This document shows positions 1,722 through 47,565 of a stretch of DNA of 64,000 nucleotides, in pieces (the first letter of the stretch is position 1; each line of letters begins with the position of its first letter). The DNA lies in contig JANQKC010000014.1 of the NCBI GenBank assembly GCA_028281325.1, positions 23,310 to 87,309 of the forward strand, read 5' to 3'. The notes under the pieces were generated by a model. It saw nothing but the letters and a program-made list of their open reading frames with translations, did no database searches and was not told the origin of the DNA. A program made the translations under genes and the position numbers. The DNA is from Alphaproteobacteria bacterium. GTDB lineage: Bacteria; Pseudomonadota; Alphaproteobacteria; UBA8366.

Positions 1722-3113
1722 CTAACAAGGGACCGGGGCATTCCGGCGCGTGTAGTAGACCCACGTCACGGCAACGCACAGGGCGTAGAAAGCCATGAAG
1801 GCGTATAGGGCGAGTTCGGGTCCGCCGGTCAGCGTGATCGACGTGCCGTATGACTTTGGGATGAAGAAAGCGCCATACGCCCCGATCGCGGAGGTGAAGG
1901 CGATGATCGCCGCCGATTCCCGCTCCGCCTGCCGCACGAATTGCGTTTCGTCGAGGCTGGGCATCAAACGCTTCACTTCCTGCCGCATGATCGATGGGAT
2001 CATCTGGAAGGTGGACGCGTTACCCACGCCCGTCGCGAAGAACAGCACCATGAACATCGCGAAGAACCCCCAAAATGCGCCCGGCGTTTCCTTGATGCCG
2101 AGGAAAAACAGTACACCCGCGACCGCCCCGATCATGACCAAGAAGGTCCAGAAGGTGACGCGGCCGCCGCCATATTTGTCGGACACCCAACCGGTCGCCG
2201 CGCGGCTGAGCGCGCCGATCAGCGGACCGAGAAAAACGTATTGCAGCGAATTCACGTCCGGGAACTGGGTCTTCGCCAGCAACGGGAACCCCGCGGAATA
2301 CCCGATGAAGGATCCGAACGTGCCGGTATAGAGCACGCACATGATCCAGTTATGCTTTCGCTGAAAAATAACGGACTGTTCCTTAAAGGACGCCCGGGCG
2401 CTTTCGATGTTGTCCATGCCGAACCAGGCCGCGACCGAGGTGATGACCAGGAACGGCACCCAGACGAAGCCGGCGTTTTGCAGCCACAGTTTCGCGCCCG
2501 TGGACGTGACCTGCGGCTCGCCGCCGATTGCCCCGAAGACGCCCGCCGTGATGACCAGCGGCACCACGAACTGCATGACGCTGACCCCGGCATTGCCCAG
2601 ACCAGCATTCAATGCGAGCGCATTACCCTTCTCCGTCTTCGGATAGAAGAAGCTGATATTGGACATCGACGATGCGAAATTGCCACCGCCGAGCCCGCAC
2701 AGCAGCGCGAGTCCCAGGAACAGGATATAGGGCGTCTCGGGGTCCTGCACGGCGAAGCCGATTCCGAGGGCCGGGATCAACAACGAGGCGGTCGACATCG
2801 CCGTCCAAAACCGACCGCCGAAGATCGGCACCATGAAGGAATAGAAGATCCGCAACGTGGCGCCCGACAATCCCGGCAAGGCTGCCAACCAGAACAACTG
2901 ATCGGTGGTGTAGGTGAACCCAATCGCCGGCAGCTTGGCGACGACCACGCTCCAAACCAGCCAGACCGAGAAGGCCAGCAGCAGGCAGGGGATCGAGATC
3001 CAAAGATTCTTTGACGCGATCTTTCGGCCACTCGCCTGCCAGAAATCCGGTTCGTCAGGGCGCCAATCGACGAGCGTGTGGCCCTTCCGGGGGGACGTTT
3101 CTTGAACTGTCAT
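1722..3113 (-). CDS. narK: MFS nitrate/nitrite transporter, NarK2-like
   Basis: 463-aa ORF with ATG at 3113, polytopic, NarK-family sequence (FWTAMSTASLLIPALG, GLGGGNFASSM, GNAGVSVMQF). Stop lies 28 nt upstream of narG. Confidence 0.85.
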   Translation of the reverse strand: MTVQETSPRKGHTLVDWRPDEPDFWQASGRKIASKNLWISIPCLLLAFSVWLVWSVVVAKLPAIGFTYTTDQLFWLAALPGLSGATLRIFYSFMVPIFGGRFWTAMSTASLLIPALGIGFAVQDPETPYILFLGLALLCGLGGGNFASSMSNISFFYPKTEKGNALALNAGLGNAGVSVMQFVVPLVITAGVFGAIGGEPQVTSTGAKLWLQNAGFVWVPFLVITSVAAWFGMDNIESARASFKEQSVIFQRKHNWIMCVLYTGTFGSFIGYSAGFPLLAKTQFPDVNSLQYVFLGPLIGALSRAATGWVSDKYGGGRVTFWTFLVMIGAVAGVLFFLGIKETPGAFWGFFAMFMVLFFATGVGNASTFQMIPSIMRQEVKRLMPSLDETQFVRQAERESAAIIAFTSAIGAYGAFFIPKSYGTSITLTGGPELALYAFMAFYALCVAVTWVYYTRRNAPVPC

Positions 3114-3124
3114 GGCTCAACTCC

Positions 3125-37711: not shown

Positions 37712-38227
37712 ATGATCGACATGCGCCGACGAGTATTTGCCTCCCGAACCGCCTTGTTTCTGGCAAGTCTGACCCTGGCGTCGAAGGCGCCGTTCGCCGA
37801 CGGGCTCGATAAACTTGTCCAAGGCGAATCGTGGCGACTGGATATGCTGCGGCGTCTGAATGCGATCCGCGAACAAAACGGCCTTCGTCTGCTGGAGATG
37901 GACGACCGCCTGAACCGCGCCGCCCAGCTTCACTCCGACGACATGGCCGCGCGCGACTTTTTCGATCACAAGGCGCCGGACGGCGCCCGCATGACCGACC
38001 GCGCCGATGCGTTCGGGTACAATTGGCGTCGCCTGCTGGAGAATATCGCCGCCGGACAACGGGACGTGCAGCAGGCCATCACCGGCTGGATGAATTCACC
38101 CGACCATCGCGCGGCCATTTTGGACAAGGGCGTGCAGGACGCCGGCATGGGCTATGCCTTCCGGGACCGCGACGACGGCAGCGTGAAAATGTCCCACTAC
38201 TGGACACTGCTGGTCGGCGCCGAGTAA
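37712..38227 (+). CDS. Secreted CAP/SCP/PR-1-like domain protein
   Basis: Signal peptide followed by a CAP-domain pattern (LNRAAQLHSDDMAARDFFDHKAPDG...ENIAAGQRDVQQAITGWMNSPDHRAAIL). Confidence 0.78.
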   Translation: MIDMRRRVFASRTALFLASLTLASKAPFADGLDKLVQGESWRLDMLRRLNAIREQNGLRLLEMDDRLNRAAQLHSDDMAARDFFDHKAPDGARMTDRADAFGYNWRRLLENIAAGQRDVQQAITGWMNSPDHRAAILDKGVQDAGMGYAFRDRDDGSVKMSHYWTLLVGAE

Positions 38228-42769: not shown

Positions 42770-43564
42770 CTAGACCGCCACCGCGGCGGGAATATGCGGA
42801 TGGAAGCGGTAATTCGCCAGCGAGAAATCCTCGAACCGGAAAGCGAAGATATCCTTCACGTCCGGATTCAATGTCATCGTGGGCAACGGATACGGCTCGC
42901 GCTGAAGCTGCAGGTCCGCCTGCTCCAGGTGATTCAAGTAGAGATGCGCATCGCCGAAGGTATGGATGAACTCGCCCGGTTCCAGCCCGGTCGCCTGCGC
43001 CATCATCATGGTCAGCAACGCATAGGATGCGATGTTGAACGGTACGCCTAGGAAGACGTCGGCGCTGCGCTGATAGAGCTGGCAGGACAGCCGTCCCTCC
43101 GCCACGTAGAACTGGAACAGGCAATGACAGGGCGGCAGGGCCATGCTGTCCACATCGGCGACGTTCCAGGCGCTGACGATATGCCGGCGCGAGTCCGGGC
43201 TCCGCTTGATCTGATCCACCAGCGCGGTGATCTGATCGACCGACCGGCCGTCCGGCGTCGGCCAGGAACGCCATTGATGGCCGTAGACCGGCCCCAGGTC
43301 GCCGGTCTCGTCCGCCCACTCGTCCCAGATCGACACGCCGTTTTCCTGCAGGTATCGGACATTCGTATCGCCGCGCAAGAACCACAGCAGTTCGTAAACA
43401 ATCGACTTCAAATGCAGCCGCTTGGTCGTGACCATGGGAAAGCCGTCGCGTAGGTCGTAGCGGTTCTGATAGCCGAAAACGCTCAGCGTTCCGGTACCGG
43501 TGCGGTCGGTCTTGCGCGCGCCGGTGTCACGGATGTGTCGTAGGAGGTCGTGATATTGTCGCAT
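42770..43564 (-). CDS. thyA: Thymidylate synthase
   Basis: 264 aa. [33 protein letters not shown] and the active-site LPPCH are present. Confidence 0.97.
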
Positions 43565-44229
43565 GTCGTCAAGTCTACCCGCCGTCGGGTTCCGTTTGAA
43601 GAGTCAAGCATGCGGAGCGGCGGATTCCTCCGTGCCGTCCACAACGCCGTGAGGGTGCAAAGCGCCAATCCCGCGACATAGCCGGCGAAATGCGCCTCGG
43701 TGACCGACGGCAGACTCGATAGCGGCAACACCGCACCGGCAGACACGCTTTCTATCGCAATCTTGCCGAGCCCGCCTACAGCCAACGCCGGATACAACCA
43801 ATCGCCGGAGCCGCGCCATTGCCCGTACACGGCGGCAATGAACAACGTGTTGAGAACACCGGAGAATCCACAATAGCGTTCGAGCCCCGGCAGATTGAGC
43901 CACAGCATCGCATCGATCACGACGATGCCGAACGACACGAGAAGAAGCAGCGTTTTGATGCCGAGTCGCTGCAGCGATTCCAAGACACCGCCGAGAAGGG
44001 TCAAAGCCAGCAGGTTCGCCGCCAGATGCCCGATATCGCCGTGCACCAAATGTCCGGTCACGAGACGCCACCACTCCCCATCCACGATGCCCGCACGCTC
44101 GTACATCAACAGACCCGGCTGCGGACCCAAGGCGGCAAATAGGCCGAGCATAACCGCCGCCAAACCGGCGGTGAACCAGGGCGGACGCACGCCGCCCTGG
44201 TTCCGGTCCCGGATCAGCCGGCCGATCAT
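43483..44229 (-). CDS. rrtA: Rhomboid-family intramembrane serine protease, rhombosortase-type
   Basis: 248 aa. Rhomboid motifs [22 protein letters not shown], catalytic GFSGV (GxSG) and AHFAGYVAG (His). ATGA overlap with the upstream GlyGly-CTERM gene. Its 3' end overlaps the thyA start by 82 nt. Confidence 0.8.
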
Positions 44230-46403
44230 TCCCGATCTCCGTCCCGGCGGCGGCTGAGATAGACCGCCACCGAGAAGGCGAACAGCAGCGCCAACCCCAA
44301 CAGACCGGTCGAGCCGCCACCGCCGCCCGAACCGCCGCTGTAGCTGGGCCGTGTCGTCTTGAACATCGGCGCCTTCGTGTCGACCCGCGTAACGCGAACC
44401 GGCGCCTGGGCCCGTTGCTTCGCGGCCGCGGTTTCCGTTGCGCGCCGGGCCTGGTTGCGCCGCTCGATGCCGTGCTTGGCGAAGACCTCATCCCGCACCA
44501 CGACCATCGACGTGTAGGGCGTGACCAATCCGTATTCCACGCCAAGCTCGGTCACGACCTGCTTGCGGTCGCTGTTCTCGCCGAAATCGTCGATGTCCTG
44601 CAGTTGCGCCTCGATCGCCGAGAAGGCCCACAAGCGTTCGATTTCCGGGTTCAAGTCGGCAGTCCTCGGAAAATCGAACCGGGTGGTGTAGGTCGTCGGC
44701 GTGCCGGAGATCAGCCCGGACAGCGTTACTTCCGCCTCGCCGTCGCCCCGGTACTTGCCGAACACGACGAGCTGTTCACCTCGATACAGGCTGCCCAGCC
44801 GTTCGGGCGTCAGATCGCTGGTGCGAACGCCGCTGATCTCGATCCCGACCTTGTGCAGCGCTTGATGGGTCACCTTCGACGTCGCGGACAGAACCGCGCC
44901 CACGATGTCGTCGCTGTTCGAGATGCTGATCGACGTACCGCCCGACGCCCGCGTCATCCCCGTCAGTAGGGTCCGGTTCGCACTGTTGCCCATAACGAAG
45001 GTGAACAGTCTAACGTCCGCCTTGCGCACCAGTTTGAGGAACGCCTTCTTGCGGGTCTCGCCCACGTTGGCGACGCCATCCGTCACCAATAGGATCGCCG
45101 TGGTGCGGTCCGCGTCGACGAAGTTGAGGCCGAGCTTGAGGCCGTCGAACAGGTTGGTGCCCCGGTTCGGCTGCACGGCGTCCAGCAGCGCGACCGCCTT
45201 CTTCACATTCTCCGGCGTGGCGGGCAGAAACCCGGATGTCAATTCCGATGCCGTCTGGTCGAACAACACGATCCGGAACCGGTCGACCGGGCGCAGCTTC
45301 GAAACGCCGCGGGCCACGCCTTCGGTCAGGGTATGGAACTTCCGTTTCATCGACCCCGACTTGTCGAGCACAAAGACCCAATCCTTCCCCTCGACGATGG
45401 GCTTCAGGTCGTCGCCGGGCGTCAACACCATCATGAAGGTCCCCGGCTTGTCCGGATCCGGGCGATACGCCACCAAATCCACGCTGCCCGGGAGGTTATC
45501 CGCCTGACGCCAATAGACGACGATATCCGTATCGAGACGGAACGACGATGTCGCCGCACGCGGCGCCGCCCGGACCGGCGTCACGGCCTCGCCTTCGTCG
45601 ATCGTGTGGGTAGGCCGCGTCGGCACGGCGATCACCTTGTCGTCGCGATCCGGGTTACCATCGACAACGGCTGGCGATGGCGCAATCGATTTGCCGCTGC
45701 GGTTGTCCATACGGACGCGCCATTCCCGGTCCGACACCTGCGTGACGACCGCCTGCGGATGTTTCGGCAACCGCAGCGCCGCGACCGGATAGGACGAGCG
45801 CAGTTGAAGGTCGAAACTGAACCGGCCCTCCACCTTCTCGTTCGCCGTCCAGAAGGCGAGCTTCGCGTCGTCGACGCCCCCCTCCTCCAAGGGATAGACG
45901 TAGCGGCCGATGCTGGTGTCGATATGCGCCGGCTGGATATAGGTCAGGCGTACCCGCACGTCCTTCCCCGCCCGCACCGGCGTCACCGAGATGTCGAAGG
46001 TCTTGTGCGAATCCTGCTCGGTCAGGGCCGCCTCGCGGCCGGCCTTCTTCTCCTCTTCGTAGACAGCGCGCGCCTTCTTCTTGGCCAGCACCTCGCCGGT
46101 CACCGGTTTCCCGTCGATCCAATAGGTGAAACCCGACACCGCCGCCTTTTTCGGCACCGGAAATGAATAGATCGCCTCGAAATCCTTGCCATGCGGATTC
46201 CGGAACACCTGCTCCACGGCGGTGATCGCATAGCCGTCTTCGACCGTCACCCGGACCGCCTGATCCTGAACCACCAGCGGCGGCGTGCTCCCATCCGCCG
46301 GACTCAACAACCCGGCGGCGGAGGAATCCGCCGCAAAAACCGCTGCGCCCGTCAGGATTCCGACAGAGACCAGCGCATACCGCCACATTCGAGAAAGCAT
46401 CAT
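44226..46403 (-). CDS. Secreted VIT + von Willebrand factor A domain protein with GlyGly-CTERM sorting signal
   Basis: Start ATG 46403 (AAGGAAA RBS; the track uses TTG 46433). Signal peptide, VIT domain, vWA domain with MIDAS DKSGSM. C-terminus [39 protein letters not shown] consists of a Gly run, a TM helix and a basic cluster. Confidence 0.85.
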   Translation of the reverse strand: MMLSRMWRYALVSVGILTGAAVFAADSSAAGLLSPADGSTPPLVVQDQAVRVTVEDGYAITAVEQVFRNPHGKDFEAIYSFPVPKKAAVSGFTYWIDGKPVTGEVLAKKKARAVYEEEKKAGREAALTEQDSHKTFDISVTPVRAGKDVRVRLTYIQPAHIDTSIGRYVYPLEEGGVDDAKLAFWTANEKVEGRFSFDLQLRSSYPVAALRLPKHPQAVVTQVSDREWRVRMDNRSGKSIAPSPAVVDGNPDRDDKVIAVPTRPTHTIDEGEAVTPVRAAPRAATSSFRLDTDIVVYWRQADNLPGSVDLVAYRPDPDKPGTFMMVLTPGDDLKPIVEGKDWVFVLDKSGSMKRKFHTLTEGVARGVSKLRPVDRFRIVLFDQTASELTSGFLPATPENVKKAVALLDAVQPNRGTNLFDGLKLGLNFVDADRTTAILLVTDGVANVGETRKKAFLKLVRKADVRLFTFVMGNSANRTLLTGMTRASGGTSISISNSDDIVGAVLSATSKVTHQALHKVGIEISGVRTSDLTPERLGSLYRGEQLVVFGKYRGDGEAEVTLSGLISGTPTTYTTRFDFPRTADLNPEIERLWAFSAIEAQLQDIDDFGENSDRKQVVTELGVEYGLVTPYTSMVVVRDEVFAKHGIERRNQARRATETAAAKQRAQAPVRVTRVDTKAPMFKTTRPSYSGGSGGGGGSTGLLGLALLFAFSVAVYLSRRRDGDRE

Positions 46404-46426
46404 CGGATATTTCCTTTGCTCATTAT

Positions 46427-46591
46427 TGAACAATGTTCATTTAAAGCGCCGACGATTCGACGTGCTGGCTTGCAGCCTCAGAAACTTTAGGCGAACAGCC
46501 GTTCTATGCCTCGCCGAACACTTAAATGAACAACGTTCAGAAAATATGAGACAAACCGGCCTCAGGAGTCAAGAAAAATAAACAATGTTCA
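46427..46591. repeat. Three copies of the palindromic motif TGAACAATGTTCA(TTTAA)
   Basis: Copy 1 at 46427-46439 is TGAACAATGTTCA. Copy 2 at 46527-46539 is TGAACAACGTTCA, with its flank in inverted orientation. Copy 3 at 46579-46591 is TAAACAATGTTCA. Start-to-start spacings are 100 and 52 bp. All lie in the AT-rich spacer between the VIT-vWA gene and ssrA. Confidence 0.6.
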
Positions 46592-46688
46592 ATTAATCCT
46601 TTTGGACAAGAACACGGATGGGCGACGGGAAAAACGGCAAGATCGTCGGAATTTGGCCCGGTTACGGTCTTTCAGCGTAGACAGGCCT

Positions 46689-46716
46689 TTATACAAGGGC
46701 CGGAAAACCCTATATT
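46689..46716 (+). promoter_or_regulatory. Candidate sigma-70 promoter for ssrA
   Basis: TTATAC-N16-TATATT. The predicted start near 46722 gives an ~82-nt acceptor piece ending at the encoded CCA. Confidence 0.4.
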
Positions 46717-46720
46717 TCTT

Positions 46721-47060
46721 GTGTCGGGAAACCGACTATGGCGCTAAATGGCCTCGTGAAATAAGCGCAGCGGACCCGGGGGCGGTACCCGGCGCCTCCA
46801 CCATCACTCGGACCCGGTCGGGTTCAGGCATGGGGGCGAAATAGGATCGACGCGCGTGGTAAAGACTTGGTTTGTGCCCGGCATGGTACCACCGTTATCG
46901 GGCTATTTCGCTAATTGCGAATGACAACTATGCGGGCGAAGCCCGCCTCGCTGCTTAATCTAATTAAGTAAGCGCGGTCCGGGGGGCACCGGGCAACAGA
47001 AGCCCCCCAACTAATCAGCGTATAGTATTCCGCACTTGAAGGGACGTACGACTATGGTAG
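46721..47060 (+). ncRNA. ssrA: Two-piece (circularly permuted) tmRNA: acceptor piece ~46721-46803, coding piece 46832-~47060
   Basis: The acceptor piece ends ...GGAC-CCGGG-GGCGGUA-CCCGG-CGCCUCC-ACCA (46803). The coding piece starts GGGGGCGAAAUAGGAUCGACG (46832). Its first 7 nt pair with CGCCUCC and give the Ala-identity G3.U pair. The tag ORF GCG AAT GAC AAC TAT GCG GGC GAA GCC CGC CTC GCT GCT TAA (46917-46958) encodes ANDNYAGEARLAA. The outer ends of the two pieces are approximate. Confidence 0.8.
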
Positions 47061-47076
47061 AACCGGTCCCTACACC

Positions 47077-47565
47077 ATGACGGAAGACCTGCTTCAATAC
47101 GATCGGCTGGTCGAACGGGCGTTGAAAAACGTCGTTCGCGAAGCGCTCACCTACGTGTCCGAGCATGGCTTGCCCGGCGCGCACCATCTATACGTCACCT
47201 TCCGCACCGATCACCCGGACGTCACGCTGTCGGATGAACTTCGCGAGAAGTATCCGTTGGAAATGACGATCGTCCTGCAATATCAGTTCTGGGACCTGAA
47301 TGTCGGCGAAGATCAGTTCGAGGTGACGCTCAGTTTCAACGACCGCCACCAGCGGCTCGTGGTTCCCTTCTCCGCGGTCAACGCGTTCGCCGATCCATCG
47401 GTCAACTTCGCCCTGCAGTTTCAGCCGGCCGAAGCGGCCGCGCAAAACGACGACACGGCGGGACAATCGGCCGACGCCGTCGGCGATAGCGCGAATGCGG
47501 ACGGCGACTCCGCCGAAAACCCCACCGACAACATCATCCCCCTGGACACTTTCCGCAAAGACTAA
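47077..47565 (+). CDS. sspB: SspB-type ClpXP adaptor (alphaproteobacterial SspB-alpha family)
   Basis: 162 aa. The N-terminal domain (YDRLVERALKNVVREALTYVSEHGLPGAHHLYVTFRTDHPDV...QYQFWDLNV) fits the SspB fold family. Acidic linker and C-terminal ClpX-binding-like tail NIIPLDTFRKD. Confidence 0.8.
   Translation: MTEDLLQYDRLVERALKNVVREALTYVSEHGLPGAHHLYVTFRTDHPDVTLSDELREKYPLEMTIVLQYQFWDLNVGEDQFEVTLSFNDRHQRLVVPFSAVNAFADPSVNFALQFQPAEAAAQNDDTAGQSADAVGDSANADGDSAENPTDNIIPLDTFRKD

Follow-up and report, generated by a model that had tools for sequence, protein, structure and literature searches.

A probable dedicated rhombosortase and ITIH-like cargo pair with a GlyGly-CTERM-type tail in an uncultured alphaproteobacterium

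In a 64,000-nucleotide stretch of DNA from an uncultured alphaproteobacterium (assembly GCA_028281325.1, contig JANQKC010000014.1, positions 23,310 to 87,309; hereafter the window, with positions counted from its first letter), two genes on the minus strand are joined by a stop/start overlap. The upstream gene encodes a secreted protein with a VIT and a vWA domain, here called the cargo, which ends in a tail of the GlyGly-CTERM type, and the downstream gene encodes a rhomboid protease of the rhombosortase family. The overlap, read directly from the letters, suggests that translation of the two genes is coupled. The features of the pair are as follows.

44226..46403, minus strand: cargo gene, encoding a 725-residue secreted VIT + vWA (ITIH-like) protein with a GlyGly-CTERM-type tail (open reading frame, Pfam, AlphaFold2 model)
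43483..44229, minus strand: rhombosortase (RrtA/RssP family), 248 residues (TIGR03902, Pfam Rhomboid, GlpG motif alignment)
44226..44229, minus strand: ATGA stop/start overlap formed by the cargo TGA and the rhombosortase ATG (read from sequence)

The cargo frame is open across 44226..46433 on the minus strand, and the ATG at 46403 gives a product of 725 residues, a protein that independent gene callers have called identically on other contigs. Its parts ahead of the tail can be listed by position.

46317..46403, minus strand: signal peptide, residues 1-29 (basic n-region and a hydrophobic helix at residues 2-23 in the AlphaFold2 model)
45939..46268, minus strand: VIT domain, residues 46-155 (Pfam PF08487, 112.4 bits against a cutoff of 26.5)
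44913..45377, minus strand: vWA domain, residues 343-497 (Pfam VWA_3, VWA and VWA_2)
45351-45365, minus strand: metal ion-dependent adhesion site (MIDAS) D347-x-S349-x-S351 (DKSGS, residues 347-351), completed by T416 and D442

Both domains score above their Pfam gathering thresholds, VWA_3 reaching 45.5 bits against 27. In an alignment of 44 cargo homologues, 54-88% identical to the window's protein, the complete MIDAS (D347, S349, S351, T416 and D442) is invariant in 44 of 44. Cleavage of the signal peptide is predicted within SSA/AGLL, to leave a mature N terminus of AGLLxP. In the same alignment A30, G31, L32, L33 and P35 are invariant; this predicted N terminus (residues 30-35) is conserved more strongly than the greater part of the VIT domain. 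The 44 homologues were also used for an AlphaFold2 model, which has a predicted local distance difference score (pLDDT) of 80 and a predicted template modelling score (pTM) of 0.77. Searched with Foldseek against the PDB, the model finds as its top match ITIH1 (6fpy), over 633 columns with an E value of 3e-39 and a target-normalised TM-score of 0.71. The sequence itself matches human ITIH4 in the PDB (E value 3e-29), as well as ITIH1 and the VIT region of PARP4. By these matches the cargo is a bacterial protein of the ITIH type with an integrin-style MIDAS. When the whole protein was scanned against NCBIfam, no curated equivalog claimed it. The best match was TIGR03788, the marine proteobacterial sortase target, at 216.2 bits against a cutoff of 551.65, and the model for VIT proteins of the XrtN system matched only faintly. 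Since 216 bits lies below 551, the cargo is classed by its sequence score as a homologue of the sortase-linked VIT-vWA proteins and not as a member of TIGR03788.

The downstream protein scores 103.6 bits on TIGR03902, the rhombosortase model, against a curated cutoff of 84 (E value 9.6e-30), with the match running over model positions 3-152 of 154. The two GlpG equivalog models in NCBIfam give it about 18 bits against cutoffs of 250 and 335, and Pfam Rhomboid matches at 43 bits. Alignment to Escherichia coli GlpG places the WR motif (EWWR) at residues 54-55, aligns H68 and N72 of the second transmembrane helix (H..H...N), and identifies the catalytic pair.

43861-43863, minus strand: catalytic Ser123, in GFSGV (alignment to E. 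coli GlpG)
43690-43692, minus strand: catalytic His180, in AHFAG (alignment to E. coli GlpG)

By these scores the protein is a rhombosortase and not a rhomboid of the GlpG type. Its reading frame carries a C-terminal extension of about 45 residues past the rhomboid core.

At its extreme C terminus the cargo has the tripartite architecture of a sorting tail, namely a Gly/Ser-rich motif, a transmembrane helix and a basic cluster.

44229..44336, minus strand: GlyGly-CTERM-type tail, residues 690-725 (sequence, model, homologue conservation)
44307-44327, minus strand: glycine run G693-G697 followed by S698-T699 (sequence)
44256-44306, minus strand: hydrophobic transmembrane helix, residues 700-716 (sequence)
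44244-44252, minus strand: basic cluster RRR, R718-R720, with five more residues to the end (sequence)

In the AlphaFold2 model the glycine linker (690-700) is disordered and residues 701-724 are helical. G695 is invariant in the cargo homologue alignment, and G697 and R718 are conserved in at least 90% of its members. A comparable tail closes 119 of the 120 database homologues that score best, which are 55-100% identical. Their consensus can be written as GGG, a break, then [A/S][L/V/I/G][D/G], typically with 18-23 residues to the first basic residue and 3-5 basic residues thereafter. The rhombosortase cut in the window's cargo is predicted to fall after G697.

The pairing of the two genes is conserved well beyond the window. 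Among the candidates scored, the cargo family numbers more than 2,969 proteins at an E value of 1e-10 or better, with a mean column identity of about 59%, and at least 566 cargo loci lie on contigs from one genome per species. Neighbourhoods were compared for the 80 best cargo loci (designated by L numbers where they must be told apart) using tblastn and the family hidden Markov model, and 77 of these had enough downstream sequence to be assessed. In 60 of the 77, the gene directly downstream of the cargo and on its strand encodes a rhombosortase. The genomes that carry the pair include Alphaproteobacteria (among them the cultured Aestuariispira insulae and Afifella marina), Desulfobulbia, Betaproteobacteria (Uliginosibacterium, Azoarcus) and many sulfur-oxidising Gammaproteobacteria. 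The 17 loci without an adjacent protease, three Alcanivorax loci for example, retain the cargo tail, which fits the published pattern that unlinked genes go with multi-target genomes. When reading frames within 6 kb of the cargo were clustered across the 80 loci, no third conserved gene was found; beyond antisense shadow frames, no cluster was common to more than 19 of the 80. The thymidylate synthase gene, thyA, comes after the protease in the window's closest relatives alone, so that what is conserved is the pair of genes and not an operon with thyA and folA. The strength of the TIGR03902 match together with the recurrence of the pair in 60 of 77 loci means that it is not a chance adjacency. 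Much of the original prediction, which was made from the letters of the window, has held up in these analyses: the secreted 725-residue protein with signal peptide, VIT, vWA and MIDAS is borne out by Pfam and the 44-homologue alignment, and the ATGA overlap and the GFSGV serine and AHFAG histidine by the sequence and the GlpG alignment. Its proposals that the rhomboid is a rhombosortase rather than a generic GlpG and that the adjacency would be kept in related genomes are likewise upheld.

Taken as a whole, the locus is probably a dedicated rhombosortase/GlyGly-CTERM sorting pair in which the cargo is processed much as VesB is by RssP. What was observed here comprises the gene pair, the family of the protease, the cargo's domains and fold, and the way the pairing is conserved from genome to genome; the mechanism is transferred by analogy from VesB and RssP of Vibrio cholerae. 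Cleavage of VesB by rhombosortase leaves the second glycine of the motif as the new C terminus, and this glycine carries a glycerophosphoethanolamine-containing moiety, probably phosphatidylethanolamine (PMC6219818). Surface display of VesB depends on the type II secretion system (PMC6219818). The tail alone suffices for targeting to RssP and for membrane association, and translocation across the outer membrane needs a separate signal (PMC13393428).

Following this model, the cargo and rhombosortase genes would be transcribed together, and the ATGA overlap would probably couple their translation. The cargo would be exported by Sec, with removal of the signal peptide between about A29 and A30. 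The helix at residues 700-716, held by the cytoplasmic RRR, would then keep the protein transiently in the inner membrane with its ITIH-like VIT-vWA ectodomain in the periplasm. Rhombosortase (Ser123/His180) would cut at the end of the glycine run, most likely after G697, and the new C-terminal glycine would form an amide bond with a glycerophosphoethanolamine-containing lipid, so that a peptide anchor is swapped for a lipid anchor. The lipid-anchored cargo might next be moved to the outer membrane or the cell surface, where its intact MIDAS could bind a ligand in a metal-dependent manner, as in an adhesin or a matrix-binding protein. By the published rule, adjacency with the rhombosortase leads one to expect a single target (PMC3237569). 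A second target was sought in the window with a loose pattern, and the one match (1722-3116) was set aside as it looks like the ordinary terminal transmembrane helix of a membrane protein.

Several observations weigh against this interpretation. That the cargo is cut, joined to lipid and exposed at the surface is extrapolated throughout from a single protease substrate, a gammaproteobacterial one. The 64-kb window shows no signatures of type II secretion, with neither a prepilin motif nor a GspE Walker box anywhere in it, and from this nothing follows for the remainder of the genome. The curated GlyGly-CTERM model, TIGR03501 (22 positions, cutoff 15.5 bits), gives no match to the window's cargo tail even at an E value of 10 or below, whether the whole cargo or tail fragments of 32, 44 and 69 residues are scanned. 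The residues that follow the glycine run are S-T-G, and most orthologues have A-[LVI]-[DG] in their place. This S-T-G is a minority variant of the window's clade that TIGR03501 misses, and the tails of the closest alphaproteobacterial relatives also fall below its cutoff. In favour of the interpretation, 16 of 50 orthologous tails match the model at an E value of 10 or below (best 3e-4), and 2 of 10 scanned singly exceed the cutoff (19.1 and 15.7 bits against 15.5). The window's tail occupies the same alignment columns as these orthologous tails, some of which pass. Its only NCBIfam matches are below threshold, to an SVAGG GlyGly-CTERM family and to MYXO-CTERM. The original prediction had called the tail a GlyGly-CTERM outright; its tripartite architecture agrees with that call, but the curated model does not recognise it. 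We file it as GlyGly-CTERM-type on architecture, position and partner despite the failed model, because the founding authors likewise accepted tails that TIGR03501 had missed by inspecting the genes beside a rhombosortase (PMC3237569).

The extent to which rhombosortase goes beyond cleavage can also be questioned. The C-terminal helix might be a working anchor and the protease might simply hydrolyse it under some condition, shedding the VIT-vWA protein without lipid attachment to the periplasm or the medium. Regulated release of this kind was raised as a possibility by Haft and Varghese (PMC3237569), some VesB and all VesC end up released in V. cholerae (PMC6219818, PMC13393428), and no separate transamidase gene is conserved beside the pair. 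It is nonetheless an improbable account of the locus, as the sole experimentally studied rhombosortase substrate bears a glycerophosphoethanolamine amide on its new C-terminal glycine and needs detergent for extraction. The invariant glycine at the cut site suits the acceptor requirement of transamidation no less than simple cleavage. Much further from what we would expect is a cargo that stays for good in the inner membrane as a tail-anchored protein, with a rhomboid that has another substrate or a quality-control role and an adjacency that reflects operon packing with thyA and folA. The failure of the tail on TIGR03501 would agree with such an arrangement, as would the tight same-strand packing of rhomboid, thyA and folA with no terminator-like site between cargo and rhomboid or within the rhomboid ahead of the thyA start. 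The cargo-rhombosortase order, however, recurs in 60 of 77 loci that span several classes, whereas a following thyA is confined to the closest relatives, and the rhomboid belongs to a subfamily that was defined by its co-distribution with tails of this kind (PMC3237569).

The tail could also be read as a signal for some other sorting enzyme encoded elsewhere, be it a myxosortase acting on MYXO-CTERM, a sortase acting on LPXTG or an exosortase acting on PEP-CTERM, and to this we give next to no credence. The window's tail does match MYXO-CTERM weakly (E value about 1, 9-10 bits against a cutoff of 20), and some orthologous tails weakly match the LPXTG-anchor and PEP-CTERM models. A MYXO-CTERM identity was nevertheless rejected on the absence of cysteine from the tail, a residue that is reported to be invariant in MYXO-CTERM. 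The tail has neither an LPXTG nor a PEP motif, and a search of the whole window for LPXTG and PEP-CTERM motifs gave none. Short models of this sort score chiefly the transmembrane-plus-basic part that all such signals have in common, and every match of the window's tail was below cutoff.

As a rhombosortase pair, the locus can be compared with several known systems. Dedicated pairs of one enzyme and one adjacent target were already described by Haft and Varghese (2011, PLoS One, PMC3237569), who identified an adjacent rhombosortase and target in 16 of 21 single-target genomes (PMC3237569, Table 3). The novelty that the original prediction implied for a one-enzyme, one-cargo cassette therefore falls away. 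Pairs such as those of Marinobacter, Ralstonia, Geobacter and Anaeromyxobacter resemble the window in placing a rhombosortase-subfamily rhomboid beside a protein with a Gly-rich/transmembrane/basic tail. They differ in that the window's host is an uncultured alphaproteobacterium, while no Alphaproteobacteria appear in Table 3 of PMC3237569; the pair was found here in RefSeq genomes of Alphaproteobacteria. The window further differs in a tail (GGGGG-ST-GLL...) that TIGR03501 does not detect, in the stop/start overlap, and in a protease frame that reaches into thyA. The RssP system of V. cholerae (VesB, VesA, VesC, Xds and others) has the same protease subfamily and the same tripartite tail logic, and is the sole source of an experimental mechanism, with a cut after the second glycine, a glycerophosphoethanolamine amide and retention at the surface. 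It is a many-to-one system of unlinked genes with mostly hydrolase cargos exported by type II secretion, whereas the window has one adjacent, non-enzymatic, ITIH-like cargo.

Proteins with the same domains also occur with other tails. The family of vault protein, vWA and inter-alpha-trypsin-inhibitor homology can bear a GlyGly-CTERM, an LPXTG or a PEP-CTERM tail, and members with LPXTG tails have a dedicated Gram-negative sortase next door (PMC3237569). The link between VIT + vWA proteins and the marine proteobacterial sortase, which the original prediction offered, is supported by the TIGR03788 match. Its suggestion that two unrelated machineries had captured the same type of cargo was right as to the capture, but the machineries are three and were already published (PMC3237569). 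TIGR03788 with its sortase TIGR03784 is, like the window's pair, a two-gene cassette of an enzyme and a homologous VIT + vWA protein, and the window's cargo matches over most of the TIGR03788 model; in the window the score is below cutoff, LPXTG is absent, the neighbour is a rhomboid and not a sortase, and the sorting chemistry is unrelated. The overall fold of the cargo is that of ITIH1 and ITIH4 along about 630 residues, taking in VIT, vWA with MIDAS and the C-terminal helical region, at about 19% identity. Bacterial cargo and eukaryotic chains differ in their C-terminal processing signal, in the enzyme and in the acceptor. ITIH heavy chains lose a C-terminal segment and attach covalently through the new C terminus, by an ester bond to chondroitin sulfate. 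The parallel between this and the attachment proposed for the cargo is an analogy that we draw.

The pair is thus real, widely conserved and an ordinary example of a known system. The sorting system was defined in 2011 and has been dissected in V. cholerae since 2018, so that one more instance matters little in itself, and annotation pipelines based on TIGR03902 would name the protease correctly. What the window adds is an alphaproteobacterial host, a tail variant invisible to TIGR03501 and a tight ssrA / pair / thyA / folA setting. Because TIGR03501 misses this alphaproteobacterial variant, genome-wide counts of rhombosortase targets that use that model alone will be too low. For the cargo family, very large and highly conserved, there is no dedicated curated model. 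Minimal pairs of this kind would lend themselves well to the question of whether rhombosortase can carry out the lipid transfer by itself.

Some of these threads can be joined in a further proposal. The pair would be a self-sufficient module for C-terminal lipidation, in which rhombosortase itself, with no partner enzyme, transamidates the ITIH-like protein onto phosphatidylethanolamine, much as eukaryotic ITIH heavy chains are attached through a C terminus exposed by cleavage, and the family might have a role in protecting the envelope from stress. No third gene is conserved across the 80 loci; the proposal as a whole is unlikely. Two leads may point to the stress role. One is LT3126 of Limnobacter thiooxidans, a 708-residue VIT + VWA protein whose gene is reported in a preprint to be the one most strongly induced by gamma radiation and to be protective if overexpressed; the authors regard the protein as cytoplasmic (bioRxiv 10.64898/2026.05.23.727404). 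Its size and domains match the cargo family, of which it is a candidate member. Limnobacter sp. MED105 is listed with a single GlyGly-CTERM protein (PMC3237569). The other lead is that about 16-18 of the 80 loci, all of the gammaproteobacterial type, have Aas or an LplT-Aas fusion no more than 10 kb from the cargo. These neighbours match acyl-[ACP]--phospholipid O-acyltransferase (NF006386, up to 1546 bits), which acts in lyso-phosphatidylethanolamine recycling. They include the following, with about 10 further loci.

L011, 848-4303, minus strand: Aas or LplT-Aas
L048, 8408-11848, plus strand: Aas or LplT-Aas
L079, 12869-16318, plus strand: Aas or LplT-Aas
L037, 14701-18156, minus strand: Aas or LplT-Aas
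L060, 6960-9128, minus strand: Aas or LplT-Aas

At least three arrangements occur, one of them directly after the rhombosortase on the same strand. The proximity is suggestive because rhombosortase products carry glycerophosphoethanolamine, and it could be explained by inherited synteny. Among the 80 loci, Aas and LplT-Aas are absent from the window and from the alphaproteobacterial, betaproteobacterial and Desulfobulbia loci, and no literature linking rhombosortase with lysophospholipid recycling was found in the searchable library.

In the window, cargo, rhombosortase, thyA and folA are tightly packed on one strand, and neither the cargo gene nor the rhomboid gene contains a terminator-like site ahead of the start of thyA. 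The final 82 nucleotides of the rhombosortase frame (43483-43564, minus strand) overlap thyA (42770-43564), which the original prediction had missed. The overlap is kept in the relatives L003, L004, L005 and L009; L006 lacks it, with a protease that ends 4 nucleotides (two unmatched bases) before the aligned thyA start. On the other side of the pair, in divergent orientation and 280 nucleotides upstream of the cargo, lies a gene for transfer-messenger RNA (tmRNA) that had also gone unremarked, followed after 64 nucleotides by sspB.

46684-47012, plus strand: two-piece (permuted) alphaproteobacterial tmRNA gene, ssrA (Rfam RF01849, 256 bits)
47077-47565, plus strand: sspB, adaptor for ssrA-tagged proteins (Pfam SspB, 152 bits)

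In L003-L006 and L010, too, the rhombosortase pair is flanked by the ssrA-sspB block, and in Afifella marina (L082) by the same block in an inverted arrangement. A genomic island at the tmRNA gene was considered and rejected, since the pair is located 5' of ssrA, its G+C fraction (0.65) is within the range of the window, and relatives with a cargo of no more than 76% identity still have the order ssrA-pair-thyA; together these points argue against a recently integrated island. Elsewhere in the window, and unrelated to the pair, 37712-38227 on the plus strand encodes a small protein of secreted appearance, beside a class III alcohol dehydrogenase gene; it has a CAP / cysteine-rich secretory protein domain (Pfam PF00188, 81 bits).

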